Position numbers and translations under genes: made by a program. Below are positions 262 to 51,257 of a DNA stretch of 64,000 nucleotides, piece by piece. Each line of letters opens with the position of its first letter. Positions within the stretch are counted from its first letter, which is position 1. This DNA comes from Candidatus Parcubacteria bacterium (GTDB lineage Bacteria; Patescibacteriota; Patescibacteriia; UBA1558; GWA2-36-10): assembly GCA_018664825.1 (NCBI GenBank), contig JABJNO010000018.1, positions 22,722-86,721 of the forward strand, read 5' to 3'. A model generated the notes under the pieces. That model was not told the DNA's origin and searched no databases. It worked only from the letters and a program-made list of their open reading frames with translations.

Positions 262-1503
262 TTATTGTTCGTTTAAAAATGTAAAACTACTTAGCATTTC
301 TTGAAAAATTATCATGTACTCTGCGTTGGGCTCACCCGCCAAACTATAATCATAAATCAGTACAAAGAAATCCACTGTTCCTTCTTCTGCGGTTGGCCTG
401 AACAAAAGGACTCTATATCTATCTAAAGACATGTAAGCTGGCAAACCACCTATTGTATAATCTTCCCAAGAATCTTCTATCGCCAGATACTCTTGTTTTT
501 GTTCTTCTGTAAAATCTTGCATTCTGGCAGAGGTCACCCTTATGTGGTGTGATCCAATCCCAAAGACTCCTGGCCAAAATTGTACTTCTGACATATTATA
601 CCCTTCATCGGTAGAATCACTTTCGTAGATTGTCCAAGTTCCAGGTCTGTTGATAGAAAATCCAAAGTCTACATTTTGATGAGGAATATAAACCATATCA
701 TCACCACTAATTGTATCTATATCACCACCCCCTAACATACCCTCACCAAGTGGATTGTAGCCATTACCTACTTCTACTCCATCTTGATAGCCATCACCAT
801 CTGTATCGGCCTTATTTGGATCGGTGGCATATGTTTCTACCTCTTCATAATCTGTCAAACCATCCAGATCAGTGTCACTAATCAAAGGATTAGTGTTGTA
901 CTCGTTTACTTCCTGAGCATCAAATAGACCATCATTGTCTGTATCAGCATTGTTTATGTCTGTACCAAGACTTTTTTCTTCGGCATTGCTCAGCCCATCA
1001 AAATCATCATCAAAATCATTGTCATTTGTATTGTCATTTGTATTGGAATTATCTTCCGGAATATCATTGGTAACATTTATATTTTCTCCGCCAGTATCTT
1101 CGGTATTTTTATTCATAAAATAATACACTGCCCCGCCGGCCAAACCAAGGATAAAAATAACAATAATAATAGCTATTATTTTTTTGAGAGGACCTCCTCC
1201 ACCTCCATCAGCTACAATCATATCAGAAGCAGATGGTCCTGCGGGTGGTTGCCCCGGAGCTGGTGGTGGATTATTTTGAGAAATTGGAGTTATCTTGCCT
1301 GACTGAATAGCACTAGGTTTTTCTACTGCGCTTGCAGGAGCAGGATCAACATCAGCAAACATATCATCAATACCTCCTCCAACTGGTGCAGCCGGCGCTG
1401 CTGGCTGAGGAGTAGTTGGTTGAGGCGATACTGGTACTACTGGTTGAGGAGTAGTTGGTTGAGGAGTTTGTGTATTCTCGTCTTTTTTTAAATCATCAAA
1501 CAT
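262..1503 (-). CDS. Membrane-anchored protein with three thrombospondin type-3-like Ca-binding repeats (DTDxDGxxDxxE), a Pro/Thr/Gln-rich N-terminal tail and a C-terminal domain of unknown function
   Basis: The N-terminus carries PQPTTPQP repeats. There is one TM helix (IIAIIIVIFILGLAGGAVYYF). The repeats read DTDNDGLFDAQE, DTDLDGLTDYEE and DTDGDGYQDGVE. Confidence 0.6.
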   Translation of the reverse strand: MFDDLKKDENTQTPQPTTPQPVVPVSPQPTTPQPAAPAAPVGGGIDDMFADVDPAPASAVEKPSAIQSGKITPISQNNPPPAPGQPPAGPSASDMIVADGGGGGPLKKIIAIIIVIFILGLAGGAVYYFMNKNTEDTGGENINVTNDIPEDNSNTNDNTNDNDFDDDFDGLSNAEEKSLGTDINNADTDNDGLFDAQEVNEYNTNPLISDTDLDGLTDYEEVETYATDPNKADTDGDGYQDGVEVGNGYNPLGEGMLGGGDIDTISGDDMVYIPHQNVDFGFSINRPGTWTIYESDSTDEGYNMSEVQFWPGVFGIGSHHIRVTSARMQDFTEEQKQEYLAIEDSWEDYTIGGLPAYMSLDRYRVLLFRPTAEEGTVDFFVLIYDYSLAGEPNAEYMIIFQEMLSSFTFLNEQ

Positions 1504-1527: not shown

Positions 1528-4500
1528 TTAAATACCTGTGATTATATGGCGACAATATATAGTATTATTACCAAGACTACCTTCCCAAATAGGCATAGCT
1601 CCTGGCACCATGTGTCCCCAAGCTGGCGTACCATTTCCCCAGTAAGAATCTGTATCAGAATTCCACCAACCATCAGCCCAACCGAGTGTTATTGGAAGGT
1701 CCGGAGAATTCCAAGTAGGAGTATCGGCACCTGGATTATAAGTTACCTCACGCCAATCATTGGCAACGGTTTCTGATGGTGCGGTAGTTGTACAGTCCCA
1801 ATAAGGACTGCCTACATTTGTAGTAATACCATAGGACTCTGGTATGCATAAACTAGGCTTGTGCTCCCAATCATCCGTATCACCTTCATCAAAGGTTAAT
1901 TCAGTACTAGTATAATCTTTACACTCATCGTTATTCATACAGATATTCCCCTCACCATTACCCCCCGGATGAATACAATATCCTGGATCATGCGCCATAT
2001 CAACTGTACAATCCGGGACACTACTCGTACAAGTTTCTCCAGCATGTGAGCCCATATAACAAACACTTTGACAACGCATTGCCTGGCAAGAAAAACTCCC
2101 AACTATCCCAGCCGCACTACCGCCATCAGTAGCCTCAAAGGCAACTACGTTACCATTTGGATTATAATAGTTGAATACACCCGGAAAAGTAGTGTCATCA
2201 ATAAGAAACTCACAAGCTCCATCACCCGTTGCCTCAGCAAGTGGTTGTCCATAATCATCACATTGTTCCCAGTTGGTTCCTGTACCTACTGTTGTACCAT
2301 TTACATAAAGGGTAAAGCTATTATCAGCCATAAACTTGGCGTATAGTCTATTTTCTGTACAACAAGCGCCTTCGTACAAATCCTGACAATCATTGATACA
2401 AGTTACGGTACCAGCTACATATTGAGATGGATCATGCAAACGACAAGCTATTTCACCGTCACAAGCTTCTCCATGATAAGCTTGCACAATAGTATCACCG
2501 CAATATGGCCCTGAAGACTGACAGTCTATACCACAATAACCTGGGGAAGTAATACTATATACACCATTGTTAGATCCAGAATCACATATTTCACCATAAT
2601 CAGTAGTCCCGCCTGAACCATCCTGGGTAATACCATCACCACACCATCCTCCAAGGCCGGTACACATACTTCCTCCGCTATCATCACAATCATATTGATA
2701 TATTCTACCCAATTGCCAAAATACACCTGATTCATATGGAGTTGGAGAAAGGAAGTTGTGATAATCACATCCTTCATAATCTTCTTGGAATGTACCATCT
2801 CCACAATATCCTCCAGTAGTACCCGCACAATCATAACGACATTCGTATTGACTATCTATATCTGAGCTAGACACCGGAGTTATAGGGTAAAGAGGACTTG
2901 GCTCTAATGGTAATGGTAAGAAGAAGGAATCTCCTATATCACATATTTCACCATAATCAGTAGTCAAGCCTGAACCATCTTGGATAATACCATCACCACA
3001 CCAACCACCGTCGGTGGCTGTACAACGACCGTAGTCATTGCCAGTGGCAAAATCCTGATGTATACCTGACATACGACATTGATATTGTTCAAACTGACCT
3101 GTATATTCTCTTGGCGGTGTCACATAATCCGTGTCGCATAATTCATCAAAGGCATAATCAAATACTCCGTCACCACAATAATCATCTGTAAATTGACACT
3201 CAGTAGTACAACCATAAGTATTGGTAGGACCTGAAACATCTGGAGATGGCACGGTATATCCTACATAATCGCACTGCTCTCCTACTGGCTCTACTATACC
3301 ATTACCACAACTACCCAGATACGGCGTACCAGGTGAACAGACCACTGTACAACTACTTGTACAAACTACTTCTCCATGAGCAGGGGCATCTGCCGTACAA
3401 TCCCAGCCGCTTAATCCATCTGGGGAAGCTGATCCATCGCATTGTTCTATACCTTCTGTCCAAATATTATCACCACAAGCAGCGGCCGGAGTCATGTCAT
3501 TACAAACTGGTACACAAGAACGTCCTATTCCAGAATCACAGGTTGCAGTACCATTGCCTGCTGCACAAATATATTGAACACCCTCACATACTCCAGATGC
3601 ACTACAACTTTCACAAACTTCATCAAATGGCTGAACAAAGGTATCTCCGCAATATCCTCCACATTCGGCAGGAGTAAACGGTGGAGTTGGCTCTGTCCAT
3701 TGACACTCTACCAAAACTCCTCCCTCAATAGTTCCTGAAGGATTACAACCAATAGCTTGTTCATCCCACCAAGTAGCTCCAACTGGATTGACGGGTGACA
3801 TTGGGGCAGGAGGATTTGAACAACCCATTGTCCGGACATCTCTATCACAAGCTTCGCCAGGATCTATAATACCATTTCCACAATACGCACTTGTTGGAGT
3901 ACCCGGTGAATATGTTGAGAACCCGTCGCACTGTGGTAGTAGTCGAGCTATAATATTTTCAGTAGACTCACCAGCTCTATCCATGCCAGTAGGATTTGCT
4001 GGACCATTGTATAAAACAAGATCATAACGATATGGCACACCTCCTACAAACACAAAGGAGCCTGGTGTTTCTGTTTCAAAATTTGCACCTATTTCAAAGT
4101 CGATGCCTCCAACAGTATTTTCATATAAATATATTTGTGAATACTCTGTACAACCAAAAGTCAAAGTAGACTCATCCCAACATGTGTCTGGGTCAGCATC
4201 AGCACTCACACATCCATTAAATAAATTTACTGGATCAACTGGCAAAGAGGTTCCTAGATCTGAGCTAAGCTCCCCTTGCCAAGAAAGGGGCCATTTACTC
4301 GTTGACATACCATCAACAAAAGATCCGGAGGTAAGCAAAGGATAATAAGGAACACAACTTCCACCACCAGGACAAACGCCAGTCTCGGCACAATTATCAA
4401 TACTAGGATCATTGCTACAAGCCATATTATCTTCCCCATATTCTAAAATCTTTTCTTTTACACTCATCAATTCACCTAAACGCCTTGCATCACGCCTCAT

Positions 4501-7500
4501 CTTCTTTCCCAAAGATTCACAATAATCTCCTACATCTGGGCAATCAAAATCACTAGAACAAGCAGCGCCTGTACCGTTGCAGATATTAGTTCCTAGATCT
4601 AATCCTGAATTTTGATTAAATTCAAAATTTTCTAAAAGCTGATTGTATATCTCTTTAGTATCATCGCTAGCTCCCACATTGTGAGCTACCAAATAAATAT
4701 TTGTATAAATTGCTCCACCATTATAGTTTGTAGCAGCAACATAAGTAGTGGCTCCCACCTCTAGAGCTTCATAACCATCCACTTCTTTTAGAGTACCCTG
4801 ATCAGCTGGATAATCAAATTTTTTGTTATACCAATCTCTAATTGATGAATGTCCAAAGTTGCTCAACATCCTAACACTAATCAAATCAACTGTATCTGGA
4901 GGAGCTCCAGGTGTGACCGCAACGGGTCCAGCAAAACCAACATAGGCATAATTTGGCGGTCCTACGCAAGGAAAGATGCAATTTCTAGCTGCATAAACTT
5001 GATAATTATATGTTTGACCAGCTGTCACTCCAGTGTCTACCCACGTTTCTGTGTTGGCTGGTAAATTTGCTCTAAAACTATAACTTGGAGCCCCGTCTGG
5101 CCTCCTGTATACCCAAAAGGCTTCTTCTCTGGGACCTGAATCATTCCAATTCAATGTCACATCCACTTCAGAAGGGGTTGCTGTCAATCCCGTTGGCGGA
5201 AGAGGACTAAAGCCAGGCATTATAGCAGGCGGGAATGCTTCGGGCATTGAGCCTGGATAATTAGTTGTCTGGGCAAAAACAAAATTTGGTGTAAGCCAAC
5301 TAGCTATTTTATCTGTCAAAGATTTTGTGTTTGTTTGCGTATTATCTTCAAAAGCTAAGCTACCAAATCTATCAGCACCGCTGTCTGCATATACATTTAT
5401 CAAAAATAAATATTCTCCTAGATATTCTGGTGGATTAAAGTTTATCATTGTAGGTGGGTACGCCAAATAAGGCAAAGGAGTATCACCGTCTACACCAGTA
5501 TCATAACAATAATATGTTGAAAAATTATGCGCACCCTGAGTCCATGGATAACCAGCTAAACTTGGCCATGGATTTTCACACATAAACAACTCAATAATCG
5601 CAGAATCTGAACCAGAACCAGCATCAGTACTAGTAACATTTAAAGCTAAAACAAGATTTCCGTTGATAGGATTGGCCGTCAAATAAGTCTGTTGAGCGTC
5701 TGGTCCTATACCAACCAATGAACTACCCCCAATATCCCAATCAAATGTTAAAAATGTACCACTAAGCATATCGCCCCTAGCATCATAGACCAAGGCGTCA
5801 TATACATGCTGATTTCCAGCAACTCCGGTAAGCTCATCATCTATACAATCAGATCCACTGCAGTTGAACACATCAGATGGTGGGTCAATCTCCACAAAGC
5901 TGATCTGACAAATATGATCCCCGGTATCAAACATCCATCCATCTGCACCAAAGAGGTTGGGGAAAGTTATGGGACTAGCTGATAAATCCAAAGGCCTACC
6001 ATGTACGCTTAATATATTTGGAGCAACCATACTGACCGAGACCGTTTGATTGAAACCAAAATAATCACTTGGATTAAATATAGCCTCTGTTTCAAATACT
6101 CCATTGTTATCAGAATCTATTTTCCTAAGAACCCATGACCCTGGAACTTCGCACCAATACGAAGCTCCGTCAAAAAAACAACTTGTATCGGTTGATGGTC
6201 CTTCATATATTTTTATATTATTATTTATACTTTCACCATCCATTATCTCACTAAAGTGAATTGTGATGGCTGTATTTGGACATATATCCGTACCAAACAT
6301 CAGGGGCTCATAACTGATAATATAGGGATCAGTAAGACTTGAGGCTGACATATCAACATCAAAGATAGCTGTTTCAGCATGATTCACCGGTACTCCTGTA
6401 GTATTGTCAGTAATTGTTCCAACTATCGGAGCTAGACCAGTACCTGTTAGTAGTTGATTTCTAATATCAACACTCATTTGATCTGCGGGACCAAAAACAT
6501 CTGCAACCGGAACCTGCAAAGAAGTCCAATTATAGGTACACATACCAACTGGACATTGTACTGGTACAAGACCACAAGCACTATTGCTCATTGGCATTAT
6601 GTCATACTCCTCTACTTGACCAATGGTATCTGCAGTATGACTATCTGGGGTGACGTCTGCTCCGGTAATAGGACAATCTATATCACTAGTGCCAAATGTC
6701 CAACTATGTCCAGCAAAGGTATTTCCAAAATTATCCTCAAAACCAGCTGGTACAGTCACCGTGTAAGTCTCATTGACTAACAATGGAATATGATTGAGCA
6801 TAAGTCCAAATCCAGCAGCAATCCCTGTAAGAGGATTTCCTACATCTATATATTCAGTACCACTACTATCCTCAATACTAAATGACCCAATAACTGCAGC
6901 CAAAGTTGTGGCATTGGGTTGATTATTAAATGTAATAGTCACTGCCGAAGTCAGGCAAGCTGCACCACAGTTTGGAGTAAAGTCGGTAAAAGTAAAAATA
7001 TCTGAACTACCAATTATACTTACATCCAAAACTCCAGTATCCGCAAACACTTCTGGTGCCCCTCCGCTATTGTCTGTCAGTTGGAGTCCAATATTTGTAA
7101 AATCATCACCAACAATCAAAGTGGTAACAGCGTTGGTGGTTTGATTATTTATATTATTTATCAAAGCAACACTTGCATCACTTTCTGACCATGCATAATC
7201 ACAAGTACCGGCTGGGCAAGATACAGGGTACCAACCGCAACTACTATTATTGGCCATTGGCAAAGCACTGTATGGCACTATATCTCCAGGGGCAGTAGCA
7301 ACAATCGTCTCGTTGTCTGGATTGATAGATACATCTTCTATTGAGCACTCTTCTTCACCAGTTGTGAATACCCAGACAAAATCTGCACCCAGGGATTCAC
7401 TATAAATATTTTGTAAAGCGCCTGGTACTGTCACGGTATAAGTGTCATTAAAATTAAATGGAACAATACCATGTTCAATCTCTATGCTATTTGGACTCAA

Positions 7501-10500
7501 TTGAGTCACATTTGTTCTCCACTCTGTTCCTCCGCTGTCCCTAATATGAAAATCAGGTTCATTGGTAGTAATGCTAGCAAGTGGTATTGGAGAATTAAAT
7601 TCTACTACAACCATTGGATTACTACAGGCCCCATTACAATTTGGATCATAATCTATTATTTCCAAATCTACCGCATTGATGATTGGATTTGTAGCCCCGG
7701 TGTATGTCACAGTATCTATCATGGTACTAGCCTCCAAAGTCACATGATTGGGAGTTTCATTTTCTGTAGCATTGAGACCAGTCAAACCCGTAAGGCCTCT
7801 ACTGGTCATCAAGTTTGTAGTCGGACTAATAGAAGCATAAGGAGGGGCTGTGGCTGGCTCTGCTGTAATAGCCCAATCCCAATTATAATTTTCTCCACAC
7901 ATATTACAATTATCAGCTTGTGGGGAAGCATAAAATGATCTAGTTTGACCTATGTTTGTATCACCAGAGGGTGATTGTGGTGATATGGTCACTCCGCTCA
8001 CTGGACACATATCTGCCGTTGGCCTTGTTTTGAAATGCCAATCAGGAGCAGGATTAGCAACAGTAGGCCAAGTATCTCCACCTACTTCCGTGTTGAATCC
8101 AGGACCAGCCCCCATAACTATCCTATACCATGTATCTGGATTTAAATTAGCAGCAGTTGGATCAAATACTATACCTTCTCTATTGCTACCACTATTTATA
8201 ATACTCGAGGCACCTGGCACAGCTGTAGTGCAGGTAGCTGCTGAAAAAGCCCCGCCCACATTACACTCTGTAACCATGAAATTGGCAGGAATCAACAAAT
8301 CCGCATCTACGACATCCCTAGTAAATAAGGCTACTATATTTGTGCTCAAATATGCGTCTTCAGAATCATATCCATCCATATCATCTGGCCATGGAGATGG
8401 AGATTGCAAATTGTTACTACAATCATGTGAATAGGCAAGCCCAAAAGGATCTGCCTCGGTATTTAGTGTCCAAGTATAAGTACAAGTATTTAGACTTGAA
8501 CAGCCTCCAGCGGGAGCGCAGGTATTATCAGAACAGCACTCATCACCAAGTCCGTAGGCCTGGCAGTATGCATTGCTACCACCACAACTACCTACATTGA
8601 ACATCATAGAGTTTGAAGGCGTAGGTGAGGAATCATTTACCACCATCACTGATCCTGACTCAGCAAGACCAGGTACCGCCACTCCTTCTATATCATTATT
8701 GGCCCAAGAGCTTCCTGTGCCCCATGAATTTAAATTGAAATCAAAAACATCACTTGCTGCACCCAGAGTTCCAAAATTGTCACCAGCCAAATCTACCACT
8801 ACTCCACCGGCCGGTCCGTTGTCTGGGTGAAGATAACAAAGTCCTGGACCTGGTAGCCCAGCTGTTATATCAATCAAATAATCATTACTATCAATACCAT
8901 CGCTGGTAGTCACCCTAGCCACACGATCAATGCCAATACTAACTCCAGTAGGCACCTTTACTATAATCTGTGTATCCTGCCAAAAAGAGCTACTACATAT
9001 AGGAGGGAAAGTAAAATCCCCATTTATACCATCAAGTAACAATTGTCCTTGGGTATTTCCAAAGTTGACTCCACGGACAGTGAGGTATTGCCCTTCTGGA
9101 CCACCATCGGGAGTGATCTCTGTGATCCTAGGCAAACCGCTATCCACTGGTAAAGCAGAAAATGGAAAAGCATTACTAATATCTGTACCATTTTGCATAA
9201 CTACTCCTACCTCACCAATTACATTTGGTACATCTGGATTAGCCGTTGAATCATTTACTACATTTGTATTAGGACTAGTAAAGCCTCCGAAAATAGCCTC
9301 GCTACCAAGAAAACGTATACCGCGAACATTTACAGAGTCTTCATAAGATCCGGTTGGCGGAGTCAGTTGACAGATACCCGGTCTATTAAGAGAGTTGTCT
9401 GAATTGAATAAAACTGAATTACTACTAGCCACTCCATCTGACCTCTCTAAAGTCAGTTGCCCCGTGCCCGCTCCTACGGGTACAACTACTATCACAGCTG
9501 TGTCAGTCCAAAGATTACTACACAAACCACCAGTAAGGACACTTGGCCATTCATTTGGCACTACACCACCTGAACCATCGTCAAAATATACCTGTCCCTG
9601 AGCACAGCCTGTGTCTTCACAAAAATTACTACCATAGACGGTAACAAAATTACCCTCTTCACTGGTATCTGGAGAAATAGAAGAAATAAATGGATCTCCA
9701 CTAGCACCAGAACTGCCAGAAGAACACTCGGAATAAGCTGAGCAAGAATTACTATCACAACAACCAGAAAGGCATTCACCGTTGCCGCCACAAGTGACAT
9801 TGAACCAGGCTGGATTTGATGTGTCTACTCCGACTTGGACAGTGACGTCACTAGATAGTGCATCTGTAGGCACCGTCAGGGTGATCAAGTCATTTGCCCA
9901 AGAATGAGCAATATCTGCATTGTTATAAATATTTCGAACAAGCTCTGTACCAGACACAGGAGAAGTATTTATCAAAACCTGATCATCCGGCGGACCAAAG
10001 TTGTCACCTTCTATATCAAAAGAAAATGTACCAGGATCAGAAGGCCCTTGGCTTGGGTTGAGGCAAAATATACTAGGCTGAGGCCCTGAAGAATTTATAT
10101 TGAAGAAACTGCCAAAAGTATGGAAATCACCTGTCTGACTCGTGACGGTAACTGGATAGTTTCCTGGAGTGACATTTGGAACTATCACTACTGTCTTCCA
10201 ATATCCACTACCAACGCTGAGCTCATCCCACACTGGAGCTCCTCCACAAGTTGCTAGATCAGCTACATTACCAGAACCAAATTCTACCTGACTAGTACCT
10301 GCTACATAATTGTCAAAATGCCAACCACGGATAGTAACCGCTGAACCAACACCGTTTGTAAGTGGTGTTATTTCACAGATACGGACTTCATTTGGATTGG
10401 TCGGTCTTGCACAGGTGCCTCCTGTGGGTGGTAAAGTAACACTATTAGTATTACCACTATTACCTGCGCCTGTTTCATCGTATAAAGATTGTAAAATAAA

Positions 10501-10824
10501 TCTAGAAATAGCATAAGCAGACACTATGATCACCAAGCCTATGACCGCACTAACTATGATCATCTTGGCTCGCTGAATCTTGTCTGTATTGCCAGCTGAG
10601 GTCATCCAAATAAATCCACCATACAGTATCAAAACCACAGCTAGTATTCCTAGAAATCCTAGGAAGATATTTATTATTCCGGCAATCGTATCCTGCAACG
10701 ATCTAGTGCCTAGATTGACATCCGTCAAATCATTGACACCAAAGACATCTTGAGCAAAGACTTTTTGCACAGCCAAAAAGCCTAGGATGAAAGTTGCGGT
10801 GATTGTGGCCAAAAATTTCTTCAT
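1528..10824 (-). CDS. Giant (3098 aa) cysteine-rich surface protein with an N-terminal signal peptide plus double hydrophobic-helix module, IPT/TIG-like and Fn3 domains, and multiple myxo-type cysteine-rich repeats (CGDG/CGNG...E.CD)
   Basis: It is a single uninterrupted ORF. The signal peptide MKKFLATITATFILGFLAVQKVFA is followed by a TrbC/VirB2-like two-helix module. IPT-like segments include ITEITPDGGPEGQYLTVRGVNFG. An Fn3 segment reads LTATPSEVDVTLNWND...YNYQVYA. Repeats such as WCGDGIIQDGSGLTTDYGEICD and CGNGIVEPVGEQCD recur. Confidence 0.8.
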   Translation of the reverse strand: MKKFLATITATFILGFLAVQKVFAQDVFGVNDLTDVNLGTRSLQDTIAGIINIFLGFLGILAVVLILYGGFIWMTSAGNTDKIQRAKMIIVSAVIGLVIIVSAYAISRFILQSLYDETGAGNSGNTNSVTLPPTGGTCARPTNPNEVRICEITPLTNGVGSAVTIRGWHFDNYVAGTSQVEFGSGNVADLATCGGAPVWDELSVGSGYWKTVVIVPNVTPGNYPVTVTSQTGDFHTFGSFFNINSSGPQPSIFCLNPSQGPSDPGTFSFDIEGDNFGPPDDQVLINTSPVSGTELVRNIYNNADIAHSWANDLITLTVPTDALSSDVTVQVGVDTSNPAWFNVTCGGNGECLSGCCDSNSCSAYSECSSGSSGASGDPFISSISPDTSEEGNFVTVYGSNFCEDTGCAQGQVYFDDGSGGVVPNEWPSVLTGGLCSNLWTDTAVIVVVPVGAGTGQLTLERSDGVASSNSVLFNSDNSLNRPGICQLTPPTGSYEDSVNVRGIRFLGSEAIFGGFTSPNTNVVNDSTANPDVPNVIGEVGVVMQNGTDISNAFPFSALPVDSGLPRITEITPDGGPEGQYLTVRGVNFGNTQGQLLLDGINGDFTFPPICSSSFWQDTQIIVKVPTGVSIGIDRVARVTTSDGIDSNDYLIDITAGLPGPGLCYLHPDNGPAGGVVVDLAGDNFGTLGAASDVFDFNLNSWGTGSSWANNDIEGVAVPGLAESGSVMVVNDSSPTPSNSMMFNVGSCGGSNAYCQAYGLGDECCSDNTCAPAGGCSSLNTCTYTWTLNTEADPFGLAYSHDCSNNLQSPSPWPDDMDGYDSEDAYLSTNIVALFTRDVVDADLLIPANFMVTECNVGGAFSAATCTTAVPGASSIINSGSNREGIVFDPTAANLNPDTWYRIVMGAGPGFNTEVGGDTWPTVANPAPDWHFKTRPTADMCPVSGVTISPQSPSGDTNIGQTRSFYASPQADNCNMCGENYNWDWAITAEPATAPPYASISPTTNLMTSRGLTGLTGLNATENETPNHVTLEASTMIDTVTYTGATNPIINAVDLEIIDYDPNCNGACSNPMVVVEFNSPIPLASITTNEPDFHIRDSGGTEWRTNVTQLSPNSIEIEHGIVPFNFNDTYTVTVPGALQNIYSESLGADFVWVFTTGEEECSIEDVSINPDNETIVATAPGDIVPYSALPMANNSSCGWYPVSCPAGTCDYAWSESDASVALINNINNQTTNAVTTLIVGDDFTNIGLQLTDNSGGAPEVFADTGVLDVSIIGSSDIFTFTDFTPNCGAACLTSAVTITFNNQPNATTLAAVIGSFSIEDSSGTEYIDVGNPLTGIAAGFGLMLNHIPLLVNETYTVTVPAGFEDNFGNTFAGHSWTFGTSDIDCPITGADVTPDSHTADTIGQVEEYDIMPMSNSACGLVPVQCPVGMCTYNWTSLQVPVADVFGPADQMSVDIRNQLLTGTGLAPIVGTITDNTTGVPVNHAETAIFDVDMSASSLTDPYIISYEPLMFGTDICPNTAITIHFSEIMDGESINNNIKIYEGPSTDTSCFFDGASYWCEVPGSWVLRKIDSDNNGVFETEAIFNPSDYFGFNQTVSVSMVAPNILSVHGRPLDLSASPITFPNLFGADGWMFDTGDHICQISFVEIDPPSDVFNCSGSDCIDDELTGVAGNQHVYDALVYDARGDMLSGTFLTFDWDIGGSSLVGIGPDAQQTYLTANPINGNLVLALNVTSTDAGSGSDSAIIELFMCENPWPSLAGYPWTQGAHNFSTYYCYDTGVDGDTPLPYLAYPPTMINFNPPEYLGEYLFLINVYADSGADRFGSLAFEDNTQTNTKSLTDKIASWLTPNFVFAQTTNYPGSMPEAFPPAIMPGFSPLPPTGLTATPSEVDVTLNWNDSGPREEAFWVYRRPDGAPSYSFRANLPANTETWVDTGVTAGQTYNYQVYAARNCIFPCVGPPNYAYVGFAGPVAVTPGAPPDTVDLISVRMLSNFGHSSIRDWYNKKFDYPADQGTLKEVDGYEALEVGATTYVAATNYNGGAIYTNIYLVAHNVGASDDTKEIYNQLLENFEFNQNSGLDLGTNICNGTGAACSSDFDCPDVGDYCESLGKKMRRDARRLGELMSVKEKILEYGEDNMACSNDPSIDNCAETGVCPGGGSCVPYYPLLTSGSFVDGMSTSKWPLSWQGELSSDLGTSLPVDPVNLFNGCVSADADPDTCWDESTLTFGCTEYSQIYLYENTVGGIDFEIGANFETETPGSFVFVGGVPYRYDLVLYNGPANPTGMDRAGESTENIIARLLPQCDGFSTYSPGTPTSAYCGNGIIDPGEACDRDVRTMGCSNPPAPMSPVNPVGATWWDEQAIGCNPSGTIEGGVLVECQWTEPTPPFTPAECGGYCGDTFVQPFDEVCESCSASGVCEGVQYICAAGNGTATCDSGIGRSCVPVCNDMTPAAACGDNIWTEGIEQCDGSASPDGLSGWDCTADAPAHGEVVCTSSCTVVCSPGTPYLGSCGNGIVEPVGEQCDYVGYTVPSPDVSGPTNTYGCTTECQFTDDYCGDGVFDYAFDELCDTDYVTPPREYTGQFEQYQCRMSGIHQDFATGNDYGRCTATDGGWCGDGIIQDGSGLTTDYGEICDIGDSFFLPLPLEPSPLYPITPVSSSDIDSQYECRYDCAGTTGGYCGDGTFQEDYEGCDYHNFLSPTPYESGVFWQLGRIYQYDCDDSGGSMCTGLGGWCGDGITQDGSGGTTDYGEICDSGSNNGVYSITSPGYCGIDCQSSGPYCGDTIVQAYHGEACDGEIACRLHDPSQYVAGTVTCINDCQDLYEGACCTENRLYAKFMADNSFTLYVNGTTVGTGTNWEQCDDYGQPLAEATGDGACEFLIDDTTFPGVFNYYNPNGNVVAFEATDGGSAAGIVGSFSCQAMRCQSVCYMGSHAGETCTSSVPDCTVDMAHDPGYCIHPGGNGEGNICMNNDECKDYTSTELTFDEGDTDDWEHKPSLCIPESYGITTNVGSPYWDCTTTAPSETVANDWREVTYNPGADTPTWNSPDLPITLGWADGWWNSDTDSYWGNGTPAWGHMVPGAMPIWEGSLGNNTIYCRHIITGI
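2581..2660. repeat. Intragenic direct repeat copy A (about 75-80 nt) that encodes one of the duplicated Cys-rich WCGDGI.QDGSG.TTDYGEICD units
   Basis: It is near-identical by eye to 2938..3010 (atcacatatttcaccataatcagtagtc...accatcaccacacca). Confidence 0.4.
2938..3010. repeat. Intragenic direct repeat copy B
   Basis: It is near-identical to 2581..2660. Confidence 0.4.
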
Positions 10825-10848
10825 TTTTGTATTTTTATTTTTTATAAA

Positions 10849-12471
10849 CTAATTACTTGTGCCGCAATTTGTACCAGAATTAGGCCAAGGACAGTCGGTA
10901 CCAACTGCTGCATTATTATTATCACAAAGACACGTGCCTGTAGGATCTGTACATTCACAGAAATACCAACAGTTTTGTCTCAAATCACTGATTCCAGAAG
11001 TAAGAGTCGGGGTATAGTCTGTAGATGGATCCAGTATATCGTGCCTTATCTCGACAATATGACTACTATTGAGTCCCAACCAAAAATTGACATCTCCAAG
11101 CGTGCTCTGATGAAATTGGATGTTTGTACTATTGATTGAGCTAGACAATAAATTTTCATCAAAAGTAACTCTGATTGGCTCAGATACAGAAGCATCGTCG
11201 TTGTCTTCCATATTGTTTATTTCTGGTGGATCAAGATCGATTGTATTATTGGTGCTAAATGTCCAGGTAAAATCTCCTCCTGCACCACCATCGCCATCAC
11301 CATCCAAAATATTTCCAGCCATGTCTGTAATCACATTTGGAAAAGCCCCGGTACCACTGACCGTGGATAGCATGGTAGCGCTAGCAGGCAAACAATATAC
11401 ATCTCCTCCACAAGAGTTTGAACCACACCAAACATCAGTAATAAATTCAACAGTTTGATATTGATTTGATATCCAATATTGTCCATCCAGAGTAACCCCA
11501 CCCTCGTCTACTGTAATATTTGTAAAAGGAGGATGTACACCAGCTGAAACTATAGGATTGACGGGTTCAGTAAAGTTTATTTGAACTACGCTATTTCGAG
11601 GATTATCAAGACCAACTGGCAAAACAGTATCTACTCTAGGTGGTGTGATATCTACTTCATTGTTTACTGTAAAGTCCCAGTCATAGTATCCGGTAAATGG
11701 GAAAGCAGTCGCCCCTGCTACAGTAGCCAGATCATCCAGGGTCATTTTGTAGGGAACGTCACCAACGTCATCACCCAAAAGAGGTGCTGGATCAAACTGG
11801 AAATTCAGCAACTCGGCTGTATCATAAGTGACTATCAGTTCTGAATTGATCAAACTAACACCGTCGTGAGGAGCCAAAATAATATGGCTTGTATCAGCCT
11901 GACACTCTACCAATGTACCAACTATAGTAGTACAGGTAGTCCCAACCACTATATCCGTAGCATCAATTGGTTCTTTGAAAGTTACAAAAATATTGGTATT
12001 TCTAGGAATCTCACGTGCATTACGAGAAGGATAATGACTTTCTATAACTCCACCTCCCAAACCAAGTCCTCCGGTATATCCGCCACCAGATCCACCACTA
12101 CCCCCTACCGTTCCGTCGTATCCTTCTTGAAGTAAGAAGCGGGCAATAGCATAAGAAGATAATATTATAGCTAGTCCAATAACACCGTTGATAATAATCT
12201 TTTTAGCACGATCAATTTTATCTGCATTGCCACCGGAAGTCATCCAAATATAACCACCATACAAAATAATAACGGTGGCTAAAATACCTAGGAAACCTAG
12301 GAATATATTAATAATACCAGCAACCATATCTCTAAGGTCTCTAGTACCCAAATTTGTATTGGACAAATCATTTACTCCATATACATCTTGAGCGCTGGCT
12401 ACTTCTGGCAACAAAAAAATAACTGCAAAAAAGAGAAATAATAATACAGTTATTTTTTTATTAGTTAGCAT
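10849..12471 (-). CDS. 540-aa secreted/anchored protein that shares the N-terminal signal plus double-helix module with the giant protein; its passenger region is different, Gly-rich and Cys-rich
   Basis: Its N-terminus reads AQDVYGVNDLSNTNLGTRDLRDMVAGIINIFLGFLGILATVIILYGGYIWMTSGGNADKIDRAKKII. The corresponding region of the 3098-aa protein reads AQDVFGVNDLTDVNLGTRSLQDTIAGIINIFLGFLGILAVVLILYGGFIWMTSAGNTDKIQRAKMII. Only 24 nt separate the two genes. Confidence 0.7.
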   Translation of the reverse strand: MLTNKKITVLLFLFFAVIFLLPEVASAQDVYGVNDLSNTNLGTRDLRDMVAGIINIFLGFLGILATVIILYGGYIWMTSGGNADKIDRAKKIIINGVIGLAIILSSYAIARFLLQEGYDGTVGGSGGSGGGYTGGLGLGGGVIESHYPSRNAREIPRNTNIFVTFKEPIDATDIVVGTTCTTIVGTLVECQADTSHIILAPHDGVSLINSELIVTYDTAELLNFQFDPAPLLGDDVGDVPYKMTLDDLATVAGATAFPFTGYYDWDFTVNNEVDITPPRVDTVLPVGLDNPRNSVVQINFTEPVNPIVSAGVHPPFTNITVDEGGVTLDGQYWISNQYQTVEFITDVWCGSNSCGGDVYCLPASATMLSTVSGTGAFPNVITDMAGNILDGDGDGGAGGDFTWTFSTNNTIDLDPPEINNMEDNDDASVSEPIRVTFDENLLSSSINSTNIQFHQSTLGDVNFWLGLNSSHIVEIRHDILDPSTDYTPTLTSGISDLRQNCWYFCECTDPTGTCLCDNNNAAVGTDCPWPNSGTNCGTSN

Positions 12472-14731: not shown

Positions 14732-15391
14732 TTATTTATAATCTGGTAAATTAAAAGTGTTTATCCTATCAAAAGGCCAACCCCTAAACCAAACTCTGCC
14801 AATAATATATTTTTTATTGACTGGCCCTATTACCCTAGAATCATAACTATTGGCCCTATTATCTCCCATGAGATAGTATTGATCATTGGCCAGGGCCACT
14901 GGCTCATGACTTTGTGATGAAGAAAATTTTATATACTCCTCTCCTATTTCTTTGTCATTTATTTTTATCTTGCCATCTATCACCTCTACCGTCTCTCCTG
15001 GCAAGCCAATAACTCTTTTTATAAAATATATTTTTGTATTTTTTGGATTTTTAAAAATAACCACTTCACCTCTTTGTGGTTCATTGAAACGATAAGATAT
15101 CTCATCTATAATCAAATATTCTTTGTCATAAAAATTTGGCTCCATTGATGCACCTTCTACATAAAAAGGTTGAACCAAAAATAATCTAATTGGCAAAATA
15201 ATAGCCAATGATATCAAAACAACTTTTACTACCTCAAAAACCAACAAACCAAACTTTTTGGCCCAAACTGCAATACCCGTTTCTTCATAGTCTTCAGAAA
15301 AATTACTCATATCCAAATCATCTTCCGAAGGAGTTTTGTTTTCATCTTCTGGAATCAAATTTTGTTCTTCCGAATTTTTGTTTTCGTCCAT
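14732..15391 (-). CDS. lepB: Signal peptidase I with an acidic N-terminal extension
   Basis: It carries GASMEPNF, the KRVIGLPGE box and GDNRANSYDSR. Confidence 0.8.
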   Translation of the reverse strand: MDENKNSEEQNLIPEDENKTPSEDDLDMSNFSEDYEETGIAVWAKKFGLLVFEVVKVVLISLAIILPIRLFLVQPFYVEGASMEPNFYDKEYLIIDEISYRFNEPQRGEVVIFKNPKNTKIYFIKRVIGLPGETVEVIDGKIKINDKEIGEEYIKFSSSQSHEPVALANDQYYLMGDNRANSYDSRVIGPVNKKYIIGRVWFRGWPFDRINTFNLPDYK

Positions 15392-24074: not shown

Positions 24075-25238
24075 TTATAATCCTAGCTCAATAAACTCTA
24101 CTGTATTAGCTACTGCTGAAGGATAACTAATAATTGTATAGCTATCAATAATAACATTAGCTATTTCACCATCTTCATATGGCCCAAAAATTCTCTGAAC
24201 TTCTGAGCTATTTATAAAACAAAATGAAGTAGTCCGTGTATCCTCATCAATCTTTGGTAATTTAGCATCTGATATTTCATCAAGACTATAAACACAGTGA
24301 CTAGCAACAATATCGTTGTAATGGTACTCGCCAATTACATTTACTTGTCCACTAAATTTTACTTCTGCATTTTCATAACTAATTCCACTAAAAGATTCTT
24401 TGAATGGTGCAATAGAAACAATTTCCATATCTACAATTTCATCACCAACTTCGGCGGTCATTACATCAAAAATATTTGTTTGTTTTTCTAAAAATTTGAA
24501 ATTTTCTAATAACCAATCTGCCGAGTCAATCAAATCTTTATTATCTTCACCAATATAAACTATGATGTCTATTTTAGTGTCAGAAATAAAAGTTGTATAC
24601 TCACGTATATAACCTCCATCACCCACAACCCTTCTAGTGTAAGAAAAATACTTTGTGCCTGCATAATCATCTAACTTGTATTTTTCATAATCTTGACCAC
24701 CTGCAAAGGCTTGCCTTTGTCCTTGATAGCGTTCTGATGTTGGATAGTCCCCCATAAAGCATAAATTTTCTTCTGCTTTTGCCTCGCAAATTTTTATTGA
24801 GCCCTCTGAAAAAAATTGTATCTCCATTAAGTTTGGTAATCCACTATCAGCTCCTAAAAAATCATAAGAAGCAAAAGACCCTCTCCTGCCTTCTTCTAAA
24901 CTTTTACTAATAGTGTATTTATTAGGAAATTCTATACTTAAATTAGCTTCCGGTATATAAAATGCTTTTAGATCAACCTCTTCCACTTCTTTTTCTTTCA
25001 CCTCCACTTCTTTTTCTAAATCCTCCACTTCTTTTTCTAGTTCAGAAATCTTACCACCCGCTTCATTTTTAATTTCAGATAATTTACTATTGAGACTAGA
25101 GACAGAGGCTTGTTGCCAAGTATAAACAATACCACCCACCAATAAAGCGGTAATAATAACCAACAAGACCATCACACCACCTTTGTTGTGTTTTTTGTTT
25201 TTCTTTGGTGTCCCTGGGGCATTCAATTTTTTGTACAT
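24075..25238 (-). CDS. Hypothetical membrane-anchored protein with an N-terminal TM, a coiled coil (EKEVE repeats) and a C-terminal globular domain
   Basis: It has a long ORF, an N-terminal TM helix (VMVLLVIITALLVGGIVY) and KEVEDLEKEVEVKEKEVEE repeats. Confidence 0.5.
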   Translation of the reverse strand: MYKKLNAPGTPKKNKKHNKGGVMVLLVIITALLVGGIVYTWQQASVSSLNSKLSEIKNEAGGKISELEKEVEDLEKEVEVKEKEVEEVDLKAFYIPEANLSIEFPNKYTISKSLEEGRRGSFASYDFLGADSGLPNLMEIQFFSEGSIKICEAKAEENLCFMGDYPTSERYQGQRQAFAGGQDYEKYKLDDYAGTKYFSYTRRVVGDGGYIREYTTFISDTKIDIIVYIGEDNKDLIDSADWLLENFKFLEKQTNIFDVMTAEVGDEIVDMEIVSIAPFKESFSGISYENAEVKFSGQVNVIGEYHYNDIVASHCVYSLDEISDAKLPKIDEDTRTTSFCFINSSEVQRIFGPYEDGEIANVIIDSYTIISYPSAVANTVEFIELGL

Positions 25239-45134: not shown

Positions 45135-48032
45135 TTACGTTTTACCCTTAAGTGCACTTTTGATAAGCTCTCCTTTTGCATCCAAGTCCATACCATCAGC
45201 AGCACTCCTTGTCTCTTCATTTATTATACCTTTTTTCTGAAGTAAATCAAGTAGCATGTCATAAAAATCAGAACTTTCCTGAACAAACTCTTCGTCTGAT
45301 GTATTGTCTCTAAAGTCTTCATTAACGACTATCTCGCCATCTTTTCTCTCTACTAGCTTGGTTTTTTCTATATGTTCTCTATATTCTCTAATTTCAGATG
45401 CATTGTCAAATAAATCAGCCTGCAAAACCGCTACTTTGATTTCTCTAACATCTGTAATTAATCTTTGTACTTTTTCAGCCATTTCATCAATTCCAGCCAT
45501 TTCTTTGTAGACTCCTTGCATTTTTTCATACTCAGCTTTCTTTCTTGGTGGTAGATAACCAAATAACAATTGTAAAGTCTCCAGTGAGGAGAAATATTGT
45601 ATATTGTATTTACCATCGGTATTGAGTAATCCAGCTGCATCACCATTTTGATTGATTGATTTGTATTTGTCTATAGATTTATGAGGATTAAATGAAGTTA
45701 GAGTCTTTTGCCAATTTTTTAAATTTTCCTCCTGATCTCCTCCGGTTGTTGTGGTATAATCTGGCCATTTTTCACTACTCTGAAAAAAGCCTGCTTTTTC
45801 TAAAATAGAATAAATAATTACTTGCTCTTCTGGAAATTGATCATACTTTCTAATATACTTATATAGATAATATTCAATATCCATATTGGTACCTTCATCC
45901 ATGTATCCGCCAATTACATTATCAATCAACTCACGCATAGTAAGATTTGATTTTTTTAATTTATCACTATAATTGGTGGTAGTACCAGCCCCAATGAGTT
46001 GATCAAGATTTCTAAACTCAGGCAAATTTTCCGCACTACCTTCAAACATATCCATAATAATGCGAGCACCCATACTCAAGCGATATATATCCTTGAATAC
46101 AGAAAACCTATCTTCCTGCTTGACCAAAAGCTCTGCACCCATCCTGTCATTAAGAAGTTTGACCAACAACACTTGGAAAATTTGATCGTGCTTGGCTCTT
46201 TCTTTTGATTTTTTAACAACTTCCATAGCTTCTGGAAAATCCGCAAAAGCAGTATCGGCTAATTTTTCTAAATCAAGCCTACCCAAAAGTTCATCAATAT
46301 TTGACACCTCTCTTGATTGAGGAAGGTATCCCATCTTGATTGGGTGGATTCTACTATATGAAGCTGGATCCATATCGTTGTATCTAGCCTGCTTGTATCT
46401 TTCACCGGTATTACCAGTCCAGATCACACAATAACCATCTTTGACTTGAATATCTCCGGAGTCAGTCCTAGTCTGGATGATGTCACCGGGTTTTTTGGTA
46501 AGTAGATCATTGAAGGCAATCAATACCTCTGGAGTAATAGCATTGGCCTCATCAATAATCAAGGGTTTACCTTCGGTCATGGCTTTGTACATAGCACCTA
46601 GAACATAACGCCCCTGTACCTGATTGCCAAATAAACCTTCTAATTGCTGTTCTATGTCTGCAGAAAATTCTTCTGGTAATTTTTCTTTATTATCTTCTAC
46701 ATATTGATCAAATTTTTCTTTATCAAAATCTTCACCAGGATTGGCGTGATCAAAATCTTCTTTCAATCTATTCAAGACAATTGTATCTCTAAAATCACCT
46801 TTACGCTTTGCAAGCTCTGCCATTAATACATCGTCTGGAACACTATCGTCAAAAATCTCACCAGTACCTGAGTCTTTGTTTAAAATATTTAAAACTTCAG
46901 AAAGTGATAATTTTTGAATTTTAAATTCTTCGGTAAATCTATCAGGATCCAAAAATTTACTACCCGAAACTATGATAGGCTCATTCTTGAATCTAGTACG
47001 AGATAGATGCACAGCTAAAGCGGTTTTCCCGGTACCAAAGTCTCCATGAAGATACACGATGGTCGGGGGTCTTTTTGTCAAAGAAGGCATAGCCTCTTCT
47101 ATAATCTTTTTTACATAGTCTGTTTCTACTATTTTACCTGTATTTAATAATTCATGTAGATATTTCATTTCCTTGCTATAATTTACATAAGCAGGAATAA
47201 AATCTTTTTCTACTATATTGCCCTGTTCATCATATGTTGCCTCTGTGCCCAGTTTGTATTCAGTATTATATTTTTTGGCAGCCAACCTCTCTACTCTACT
47301 CGTAGACTTCTGCATCTTTTCTTCATCTACTCCGTGAATCCTAGCTTTTTCACCCTGAGTACGCAAAGAATCTTCATTACGACTAACATTGGCCATATGG
47401 ATTCCCCTTTTGACAGTTTCAATCTGACGTAAAGAGTCCCTCACTTCTGGCAATGAACTTCTAGAATATGCTTTTATTTTTTGAATATCTTCTTCTTCAT
47501 AAGCATCCATCTCTTCACTCAAGGTACTATAATGTGCCTCCATTAAGACATCAAATCTAGCCAGTTTACCCAAAGTACGGACTTCTACCTCTGCTTCCAT
47601 CTCTCTTTCTTTTTTGGCGTCTCTTGCATGAACCCCGTTGACGTCCAAAATCTTTTTTCTTTCTGTCTTATCTATAGAGTCCATGAGCATTTCCATAAAA
47701 ACATCCCTATCAACTCCCCACACAGCATCAAAATCAGCGAGTCTTATAGGATGAGCAAATTTATTTTTTGGATCAGCTTCTTGAGCATTTTTCAAATGCT
47801 CTTGAACAACAGCCTTTAAATCATCTGGCAAAGTATCAAATACCTCTGAGGTCACCAAATTTTCATAAGTCATGTACTTTTTGATCTCATCAAAAATAGA
47901 CAACATCTGCTCTCGCTTGATTTTGTACTCATAAGCCAATCTCTCTGCCTCCAAAGCCTCTGCTACTTCCGCTCTCTGCTCTTCATCATTTAGCTCTGGT
48001 GAAGGTATGGTTGGCATTCTTGATTCTTTCAT
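45135..48032 (-). CDS. Very large (965 aa) AAA+ ATPase of the MoxR/AAA_5-like type, with about 320-aa N-terminal and about 350-aa C-terminal extensions
   Basis: Walker A reads VYLHGDFGTGKTALAV. Walker B reads KPLIIDEANAI. Sensor-1 is WTGNTGERY. An insertion sits between Walker A and B. Confidence 0.7.
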   Translation of the reverse strand: MKESRMPTIPSPELNDEEQRAEVAEALEAERLAYEYKIKREQMLSIFDEIKKYMTYENLVTSEVFDTLPDDLKAVVQEHLKNAQEADPKNKFAHPIRLADFDAVWGVDRDVFMEMLMDSIDKTERKKILDVNGVHARDAKKEREMEAEVEVRTLGKLARFDVLMEAHYSTLSEEMDAYEEEDIQKIKAYSRSSLPEVRDSLRQIETVKRGIHMANVSRNEDSLRTQGEKARIHGVDEEKMQKSTSRVERLAAKKYNTEYKLGTEATYDEQGNIVEKDFIPAYVNYSKEMKYLHELLNTGKIVETDYVKKIIEEAMPSLTKRPPTIVYLHGDFGTGKTALAVHLSRTRFKNEPIIVSGSKFLDPDRFTEEFKIQKLSLSEVLNILNKDSGTGEIFDDSVPDDVLMAELAKRKGDFRDTIVLNRLKEDFDHANPGEDFDKEKFDQYVEDNKEKLPEEFSADIEQQLEGLFGNQVQGRYVLGAMYKAMTEGKPLIIDEANAITPEVLIAFNDLLTKKPGDIIQTRTDSGDIQVKDGYCVIWTGNTGERYKQARYNDMDPASYSRIHPIKMGYLPQSREVSNIDELLGRLDLEKLADTAFADFPEAMEVVKKSKERAKHDQIFQVLLVKLLNDRMGAELLVKQEDRFSVFKDIYRLSMGARIIMDMFEGSAENLPEFRNLDQLIGAGTTTNYSDKLKKSNLTMRELIDNVIGGYMDEGTNMDIEYYLYKYIRKYDQFPEEQVIIYSILEKAGFFQSSEKWPDYTTTTGGDQEENLKNWQKTLTSFNPHKSIDKYKSINQNGDAAGLLNTDGKYNIQYFSSLETLQLLFGYLPPRKKAEYEKMQGVYKEMAGIDEMAEKVQRLITDVREIKVAVLQADLFDNASEIREYREHIEKTKLVERKDGEIVVNEDFRDNTSDEEFVQESSDFYDMLLDLLQKKGIINEETRSAADGMDLDAKGELIKSALKGKT

Positions 48033-51000: not shown

Positions 51001-51257
51001 GTATCAATGCTAGCTGCATAAGAAAAACCCATTCCAAAAACCATGTTGAAACGGGCATTTTTACCTTCCAAAAATGTTCCTATTGTGTCGAGATGTTGCT
51101 GGGCCCACTCACTCATTTCGTCCCTATATGGCCACAGCTCTTTGGGTACACCATTTTGATCCTTGTTTGGATCTTGTTCTGGCTCTTTCTTACCCTTTTT
51201 ATCACCTCCGTCAGCTTGTACTGACATTTCAATTTTAGATCTTCCTTCAAATGACAT
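48096..51257 (-). CDS. 1053-aa protein with an N-terminal HExxH metallopeptidase-like domain (DUF2201_N-like), a poly-acidic linker and a C-terminal von Willebrand A domain with a MIDAS motif
   Basis: It carries MFGMLHEFAHRK (HExxH), DDKDDDNEDGDDDDDNEDGEGD and TLAIDNSGSMSG (DxSxS MIDAS). It lies immediately upstream of the AAA+ gene. Confidence 0.7.
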   Translation of the reverse strand: MSFEGRSKIEMSVQADGGDKKGKKEPEQDPNKDQNGVPKELWPYRDEMSEWAQQHLDTIGTFLEGKNARFNMVFGMGFSYAASIDTICLSVPEFKNSKEGTGMNIEQIMFGMLHEFAHRKTMEELDPAGKHGQIAQFKYEERKRMRDKDNSQKTLSLFNTYRHFYNVLEDGIVNHLVKQTAHFGENVSPKRAQEIKDAYTDLLFVMYNEVGEGNGEYAEVEDPKNPDKKEIKKVGKGKGNLVKLTAEDHEQGIDFTKVKPDMMRSGQFMTFFIKNQMLDLDEDDIQSPENPNGKFVVHEDVERALNGPIDEVYEELLNKVLEKYKDDPAQLKRYIEFMTTTVKVANFEERNGKVEEVDPDFQSNVMNLSAVPGLHTIYKKHKNNQPEFIRRMNDFFDNLTTDQVNTKRAKMQYKAGLRKVIAQLGIERKKDVSFLDIFEEFKTKTKSKKYSWTFPLKHNQSERSKIMRTTLEPIFTMLCILDDSFDVTMPEEKGEGEGGDGGDGGDPDMEEKVWSQGDKIINVDKNDPNRGKIGIITQVTEGKDGEVISVTVEYSEEREVQAMAGSTDYTYDIQEVFDPYVNLNLYNKDQKKQKGKSSKSSPDKRKNYFDDKDDDNEDGDDDDDNEDGEGDPQETNPEDQDGDDTDLKDIVNPLKEALEQMIEQDQREANLRELEEAKKSEEYKEAKYDKARIKKLLEALDKAEAEAGDDADSGWSGKDLSNEGVVKDFIELEKKIRPYADKMAKNWLEVVNNIASRIEVFKDKYYRSGKLDVKRLQKHFPEIEMGIEVDDRLIYEQLVERVISELRPKMLRMTLAIDNSGSMSGKIDQMRMSIMLLNSSLRSFRILFRDKMREILGDSAPENLDIICDTQLWLFGNDGEARKIKEFDVQDLSFLDDEESEKPQIDIDAETISTLRAFKKINASEVTFDADLWIKMLRDRNDPELKQMIADNKLTEVVIQICDGGFLGKNEEANENLAAFKGETGIGVGGFAIGDHEGDEAALEGLSERHGKENVIRANTPEQIVESFSRLLKKIIAEKVEKSMNEILDGIEK

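Follow-up and report, generated by a model that had tools for sequence, protein, structure and literature searches.

The gene pair and its shared N-terminus

We analyzed a 64,000-nucleotide (nt) stretch (called the window below) of contig JABJNO010000018.1 from Candidatus Parcubacteria bacterium, one of the ultra-small Patescibacteria, and focused on the open reading frame (ORF) of a 540-amino-acid (aa) protein at 10849–12471 (minus strand). This gene lies directly upstream of a giant gene on the same strand, which encodes a 3098-aa protein (1528–10824, minus strand). The two are separated by an A/T-rich spacer of 24 nt (10825–10848, minus strand). The spacer contains no terminator-like site, so co-transcription of the genes is likely. 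A scan for promoters and terminators returned the same counts as in shuffled sequence. It marked one promoter-like site just 5' of the 540-aa gene (12504–12476, minus strand), to which we gave no weight.

The two proteins begin alike. BLASTP aligned residues 5–127 of the 540-aa protein with residues 2–124 of the giant without a gap, giving 76 identical positions out of 123 (62%), 76% positives, and an E value of 2e-42. This confirmed the colinear N-termini reported in the original prediction, which had been made from the sequence of the window. The identity was unevenly spread: the signal peptides agreed at 6/23 positions, the mature parts at 67/92 (73%). The earlier figure of about 75% over roughly 115 aa therefore describes the mature module of 92 residues, while the whole alignment of 123 aa stays at 62%. 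The conserved stretches of the module are polar (NLGTR and YGG(Y/F)IWMTS.GN.DKI.RAK). The core motifs quoted earlier occur in both N-termini, namely NLGTR(D/S)L, IINIFLGFLGILA, ILYGG(Y/F)IWMTS, and the last one as AK(K/M)II. The similarity is thus not confined to the hydrophobicity of a signal peptide; it is weakest there and strongest in the polar motifs.

The module regions of the two genes were 62% identical in nucleotides. Third codon positions agreed in 44% of cases, and identical runs were at most 12 nt long. Because only 44% of the third positions are identical as compared with 73% of the amino acids, the likeness of the modules appears to be maintained at the protein level. A tblastn search of the window found no copy of the module beyond these two. 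The identical 540-aa protein was present on eight independent metagenomic contigs.

Identity and topology of the module

The 540-aa protein starts with a predicted signal peptide (residues 1–27; 12391–12471, minus strand), with a predicted cleavage site at VASA↓QDV. AlphaFold2 (AF2) modeled it as a separate helix at residues 2–19. The mature module follows at residues 28–120 (12112–12390, minus strand) and consists of a short exposed N-terminal segment, helix 1, the polar loop TSGGNADKIDRAKK, and helix 2. In the giant, the sequence and the alignment place the signal peptide at residues 1–24 (10753–10824, minus strand; predicted cleavage VFA↓QDV) and the mature module at residues 25–117 (10474–10752, minus strand).

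Both modules were recognized by PF18895 (T4SS_pilin), a 71-position profile with a gathering threshold of 26.6 bits. The 540-aa protein scored 31.4 bits over profile positions 12–71, and the giant scored 35.3 bits over positions 2–71. PF04956 (TrbC/VirB2) matched the 540-aa protein with 27.3 bits (E = 4e-6), just under the cutoff of 27.9, and no match was reported for the giant. NF045849 in NCBIfam, which describes the pilin-like Mbov_0395 family of Mycoplasma integrative and conjugative elements (ICEs), gave 37.8 bits for the giant and 26.1 bits for the 540-aa protein, below its cutoff of 40; in the giant, the alignment covered residues 40–112 and nearly the full profile. The AF2 model of the N-terminus of the 540-aa protein contained the separate signal-peptide helix, a helix-loop-helix with predicted local distance difference test (pLDDT) values of 80–94, and then a disordered Gly-rich linker. 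The helices span residues 18–50 and 56–94 of the mature module and are joined by the short loop TSGGN (pLDDT 83–94).

We identify the shared N-terminus as a conjugative pilin module of the VirB2/TrbC type, which belongs to an already known family. The pilin-like character proposed originally was borne out by the PF18895 scores above threshold in both proteins, and the type could be narrowed down to VirB2/TrbC. Type IV pilins start with a class III signal peptide, a short basic leader that ends in G↓F/M and is processed by PilD; after it comes one hydrophobic N-terminal helix with Glu5. We considered and rejected this identity, as the Sec-type signal peptides of 24–27 residues end in AxA↓Q sites, they are followed by a polar segment, and there is no G↓FxxxE motif. 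The two proteins, with 540 and 3098 aa and the module as their first ~120 residues, fall outside the single-domain architecture of ~100–190 aa that is typical of PF18895 pilins.

The loop and the start of helix 2 carry basic residues (DKIDRAKK). According to the positive-inside rule, this would place the loop in the cytoplasm, and the ends of the hairpin, the tether, and the passenger outside the cell. We therefore infer from the residue pattern that the passengers are extracytoplasmic.

The passengers

In the 540-aa protein, the module is followed by a Gly-rich, flexible tether (residues 121–141, GGSGGSGGGYTGGLGLGGG; 12049–12111, minus strand) with pLDDT values below 50. A Gly-rich region between module and passenger was seen in 15/15 aligned family members. 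The passenger consists of three tandem immunoglobulin (Ig)-like beta-sandwich domains of the Big_5 type (residues 142–500; 10972–12048, minus strand; PF13205, E = 1.7e-15), bounded at residues 142–270, 279–406, and 417–500. The AF2 confidence was high for domains 1 and 2 (pLDDT ~85–95) and lower for domain 3. In Foldseek, the Ig-like domains of LdtMt2 and the S-layer protein SbsC were the best matches (E = 6e-9 to 1e-8), followed by generic Ig strings. The motifs PRNT, CGxNSCG..CLP, DMAGN, and QNC are conserved in this passenger family. The protein ends in a Cys-rich tail (residues 501–540 and the stop codon; 10849–10971, minus strand), which was modeled with low confidence and in which the Cys positions are partly conserved. 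The GGSGGSGGG linker and the C-terminal Cys cluster noted earlier were both found, the latter as eight Cys in the last 41 residues (500–540).

The passenger of the giant (residues 118–3098; 1528–10473, minus strand) contains Big_5 Ig-like domains and many Cys-rich CG(D/N)G...C repeats, and TIG domains were found in its orthologues. The description of the two proteins as otherwise unrelated needs a correction. There is indeed no extended similarity between the passengers, but Pfam assigned PF13205 domains to both, and BLASTP detected a weak local match between them (E = 0.028).

Distribution of the fusions

An exhaustive HMMER search with the mature module against 1.84 billion cluster representatives yielded 31,939 matches at E ≤ 1e-3. 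We determined the architectures of the best 150 of these. Free-standing pilins shorter than 200 aa accounted for 40/150, and proteins of 200–399 aa with a single module for 4/150. A further 52/150 carried 2–17 tandem modules in one chain, and 54/150 were long proteins (530–5873 aa) with a single N-terminal module. BLAST assigned 24 of the best 150 to the passenger family of the 540-aa protein (two of them 200–399 aa long) and 30 to that of the giant. These two families cover 52 of the 54 long single-module proteins, and the remaining two carry Big_5. In the reverse direction, a search with the 540-aa passenger alone found PF18895 in all but 2 of the 120 homologues listed, one of the exceptions being annotated as partial. 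The source annotations of these homologues read 'hypothetical', 'Ig-like domain-containing', 'pilin', and, once, 'type IV secretion system pilin/Big-like domain-containing protein'.

The near-complete co-occurrence of the passenger with PF18895 indicates that the fusion is obligate and old, and that the module is not a freely portable tag. The idea of a portable module displaying alternative cargo, which was part of the original prediction, is thus only partly right. The data reveal two fusions of ancient origin that are fixed and have stayed together as a syntenic pair, with 52/54 long proteins falling into two passenger families.

A word-index search with the module (122-aa query) gave short proteins only and missed the 540-aa and 3098-aa query proteins, so that protein lengths obtained in this way are biased for short domain queries. 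It returned 104 matches, mostly free-standing pilins with up to 65% identity on long contigs, together with a few truncated mid-size fusions. The two top-ranking matches of apparently free-standing type (P0001 and P0002) were not counted as free pilins; they have the signal peptide of the mid-size family, lie on short contigs, and are probably truncated copies of the fused gene.

The tandem proteins, which we call polypilins, hold 2–17 PF18895 hairpins per chain (for example P0105 with 606 aa and P0123 with 1775 aa, besides 50 other representatives). They have a single N-terminal signal peptide and neither internal Met nor internal signal peptides, and are therefore not merged gene calls. Their scores on TrbC/VirB2 (PF04956) range from 55 to 84 bits. 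We found no description of polypilins in the literature examined on Patescibacteria pilins and type IV secretion systems (T4SSs).

A conserved cassette in class ABY1

Scanning one genome per GTDB species, we obtained 80 loci with full-length relatives of the 540-aa protein, termed the mid-size protein in this comparison. The hosts belong to class ABY1 and include Komeilibacteria (the closest, with 51–53% identity), Falkowbacteria, Uhrbacteria, Magasanikbacteria, and others. In 75/80 loci, the mid-size gene is followed by a long ORF on the same strand that starts with a module of its own. The complete giant ORFs mostly encode 1100–3400 aa (two encode 576 and 927 aa), whereas many others are cut off where the locus ends.

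The surroundings are conserved as well. Homologues of YqeY, HisS, and LepB were found within 67, 65, and 62 of the 80 loci, respectively. The divergent ABY1 genome GCA_003104935.1 shares its gene order with the window (NusG-L11-L1 ... Pth-Der-LytR / LepB-HisS-S21-YqeY-mid-giant). Many of the loci, including L009, L013, and L015, come from metagenome-assembled genomes titled 'uncultured Gammaproteobacteria bacterium' yet have the cassette, which is specific to Patescibacteria, in synteny of the Patescibacteria type; these titles look like placeholders or wrong taxonomy.

Directly downstream of the giant, the window encodes a 413-aa single-pass membrane protein (262–1503, minus strand) with a Pro-rich N-terminus, one transmembrane helix, TSP3-type Ca-binding repeats (PF18884, E = 4e-18), and a further C-terminal domain. 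A similar ORF directly follows the giant in 14/28 evaluable genomes, and this TSP3-repeat protein may be a third member of the cassette. On the other side of the cassette, three genes upstream, is the gene of signal peptidase I (LepB; 14732–15391, minus strand). This enzyme matures VirB2/TrbC propilins, and the linkage of its gene to the cassette may or may not be meaningful.

Elsewhere in the window, two adjacent ORFs encode 965 and 1053 aa (45135–48032 and 48096–51257, both minus strand), and the only match was a sub-threshold AAA_5/GvpN-like P-loop in the first. A 387-aa ORF between gyrB and nusG (24075–25238, minus strand) had no match in Pfam or NCBIfam.

Co-evolution of the modules and their likeness to free pilins

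We compared module identities over 76 genomes. The mid-size and giant modules of the same genome were 56% identical on average. The mean values between genomes were 42% for mid-size versus giant, 42% for mid-size versus mid-size, and 45% for giant versus giant. The within-genome identity exceeded the cross-genome mid–giant mean in 67/76 genomes (Wilcoxon p = 1e-12). Seen from the mid-size module, the giant of the same genome ranked at a median 98.7th percentile among all giants. No alignment column separated the mid-size modules from the giant ones. An old duplication followed by independent evolution would have left the within-genome and cross-genome identities equal; their inequality points to modules that evolve in concert. 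The saturated synonymous sites in the window favor co-adaptation or old conversion over ongoing homogenization. Judging from these identity patterns, selection on the protein keeps the two modules of each genome alike.

The module is also well conserved within a single family. Over the 76 orthologues of the 540-aa protein, the mean pairwise identity was 44.8% for the module and 23.5% for the signal peptide; the best-conserved Ig domain reached 46.7%, the other two 37.4% and 28.6%. Conservation about as high as that of the best Ig domain and far above that of the signal peptide suggests that the module is more than a greasy anchor.

VirB2-like pilins have been described in 1,948 Patescibacteria assemblies, in arrays of 2–11 genes that often lie near virB4 and with a mean identity of 25% within an array (PMC12102498). 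They are essential in Southlakia epibionticum (PMC10633639). Together with the T4SS-like system, such pilins are required for epibiotic life in the single Patescibacterium examined by genetics so far. Three of the cassette-bearing genomes are listed as VirB4-positive (Table S1 of PMC12102498). The role of the T4SS-like system and its VirB2-like pilins has been described as completely unknown (PMC11665869, PMC12857230).

GCA_964515785.1, the genome with the closest cassette (L009), carries four arrayed pilin genes on a different contig (L091), located after a gene for a solute-binding protein. One member of this array (P0011, 117 aa) is 61% identical to both fused modules of the same genome and 62–68% identical to the modules of the window. 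The likeness extends to the exposed N-terminal motif (D/N)L...NLGT(R/K).LRD. The remaining three members reach identities of 29–47%. In three loci (L051, L064, and L076), a small free pilin gene lies between the mid-size and giant genes, and its product is 49–54% identical to the giant module.

In the arrays at L091 (8847–10813) and L089 (7554–9904), 4–5 free pilin genes start 7–8 nt inside the end of the SBP_bac_1 gene. The first member of each (241–245 aa) consists of a pilin module and a Cys-rich extension of ~130 aa. No VirB4 gene was found within 10 kb of these two arrays.

Interpretation and alternatives

The above comparisons establish that a VirB2-type hairpin is obligately fused to Ig-like and Cys-rich passengers in two adjacent paralogous genes conserved across class ABY1. 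They also show a constraint on both fused hairpins to stay similar to each other and to one free pilin. It is very probable that the VirB2-like hairpin anchors an extracellular passenger, and the gene pair probably holds adhesin-like proteins on the cell surface.

The reading that we favor joins these elements into a conserved ABY1 cassette of two pilin-module fusions with co-assembled or displayed passengers, and as a whole we consider it evenly balanced between true and false. In this mechanism, the hairpins would be cleaved by signal peptidase I and join the membrane pool of pilin subunits. They would be recognized by the partners of the free pilin, that is, by a VirB4-based T4SS-like apparatus encoded elsewhere in these genomes. 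In a joint assembly with the free pilin, they would then be rare subunits that carry passengers, located at the tip, at the base, or interspersed, and the adhesin-like passengers would thereby be presented towards the host cell. Taken by itself, co-assembly with free pilins or T4SS-dependent display is plausible, with a slight leaning towards doubt. A VirB2-type filament or T4SS-dependent surface assembly of ABY1 bacteria that includes subunits with covalently fused passengers is, in our view, rather unlikely. The originally suggested role as minor subunits of the same surface structure fits the co-evolution of the modules, the likeness of P0011, and the small pilins between the genes, but incorporation into a pilus is a step beyond these findings and the window holds no T4SS gene.

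Several observations weigh against the co-assembly. Neither the ~40 ORFs of the 64-kb window that were searched with Pfam nor the conserved flanks contain VirB4, VirB6, or VirD4. All identifiable ones among these ORFs are housekeeping genes, and the cassette sits in a housekeeping region. A search with the sequence profile of the module against PDB chains gave chance matches only (E ≥ 0.37) and no solved pilin. A passenger of 3000 aa on every subunit could not be packed in a helical pilus, leaving only sparse or terminal incorporation conceivable. The within-genome likeness of the modules could also arise from occasional gene conversion, without any need to match. Finally, a VirB2-type pilus has so far not been observed in Patescibacteria (PMC12857230).

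Some of these points recur in the most serious alternative, a plain membrane anchor, where a pilin-derived hairpin has been co-opted for adhesins or an S-layer-like coat without polymerization and without a T4SS. The housekeeping neighborhood away from T4SS genes would suit it, as would the near-universal presence of the cassette in ABY1 genomes, which is expected of a basic envelope component. The resemblance of the passenger to Ig-like strings, including SbsC, and the difficulty of fitting passengers of such size in a pilus point in the same direction. A mere anchor, however, would not require the within-genome co-evolution of the modules or the 61% identity to one free pilin, and the module is conserved like a folded domain, including its polar motifs and the cytoplasmic loop. 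We regard the plain anchor as a real possibility, though a doubtful one.

Another alternative is a processed precursor, in which the passenger would be cut from the hairpin after export, leaving a small mature pilin and an exoprotein that is released or separately attached. RP4 TrbC and VirB2 undergo C-terminal trimming and cyclization, so that a C-terminal cleavage in maturation has a precedent. The disordered Gly-rich stretch between module and passenger in all family members and the signal peptidase I gene conserved three genes upstream would be in line with such processing. The linker has no recognizable conserved cleavage motif, though, the locus encodes no TraF-like peptidase, and the tandem polypilins show that the hairpins tolerate covalent C-terminal extension. 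This makes the processed precursor improbable. Still less credence, in fact next to none, is due to an artefact or a trivial recent duplication, in which the shared 5' end would stem from misassembly or from a very recent gene-conversion tract. Adjacent genes on the same strand do favor conversion, and the within-genome similarity is raised. Nevertheless, the low nucleotide and third-position identities given above, the short identical runs, and the same protein on independent contigs rule out recent conversion or misassembly as the source, and the arrangement recurs in 75 species genomes.

If ABY1 bacteria do build such a filament or surface assembly with fused subunits, its passengers would be an Ig-like protein of 45 kDa and a Cys-rich one of more than 300 kDa, and host-binding proteins would be presented in a manner not described before. 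Fused and free hairpins would then co-evolve within a genome because they have to fit one lattice, and the polypilins with their 2–17 hairpins would be a further variant of the same principle. Because the module is fused to large proteins resembling adhesins, a concrete role can be suggested for the pilin fold in Patescibacteria, namely to hold or present proteins for host contact, which bears on what the essential VirB2-like pilins of these bacteria do. The passengers also offer natural handles of epitope size for asking whether a monoderm T4SS makes a pilus, with the Ig-like one as an antibody or nanobody target and the giant in cryo-electron tomography. In terms of annotation, counts of 'pilin genes' in Patescibacteria lump together three architectures that differ greatly. 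We found no description of pilin modules fused to large passengers in the literature on Patescibacteria pilins, although the coverage of this search was incomplete and the result is not proof of absence.

Comparison with known systems

Minor and tip pilins with tip adhesins, such as VirB5, the PilY1-associated type IV minor pilins, and sortase pili, share only an idea with the present fusions and serve as an analogy. In these systems, a polymerization module that also occurs in the major subunit bears an adhesive domain, and its incorporation is rare or takes place at the tip. They have no relation in sequence or fold to the fused modules, and VirB5 is not a paralogue of VirB2.

The TrbC/VirB2/TraA pilins of diderm T4SSs (PF04956) resemble the module in having a signal peptide, two hydrophobic helices, and a short polar or basic loop. 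Their long signal peptide is cut by signal peptidase I, the subunits form a membrane pool before extraction by the T4SS, and the basic loop faces the cytoplasm or the lumen. The F pilin tolerates C-terminal peptide extensions, which are surface-exposed. To our knowledge, natural fusions of this family to passengers of hundreds to thousands of residues have no precedent. The present case further differs in its monoderm host, in a score of 27.3 as against 27.9 bits, and in having no sequence match to a solved pilin.

The Mbov_0395 family (NF045849) of Mycoplasma ICEs likewise forms a pilin-like hairpin, of 80 residues, and comes from a monoderm T4SS. Its members are small and ICE-borne, and the fused modules score below the curated cutoff of the family.

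The closest relatives are the VirB2-like pilins of Patescibacteria, which belong to the same family and the same phylum (PF18895; Quinonero-Coronel et al. 2025, PMC12102498; Wang et al. 2023, PMC10633639). They also have a signal peptide and a two-helix hairpin, with several paralogues per genome. Whereas those pilins are small, free-standing, and arrayed, the hairpins described here form the N-termini of proteins with 540 and 3098 aa, the two copies are 73% identical, and they are encoded in a housekeeping region. The pilin family itself was already known; the new feature is its fused, paired, and co-evolving architecture.

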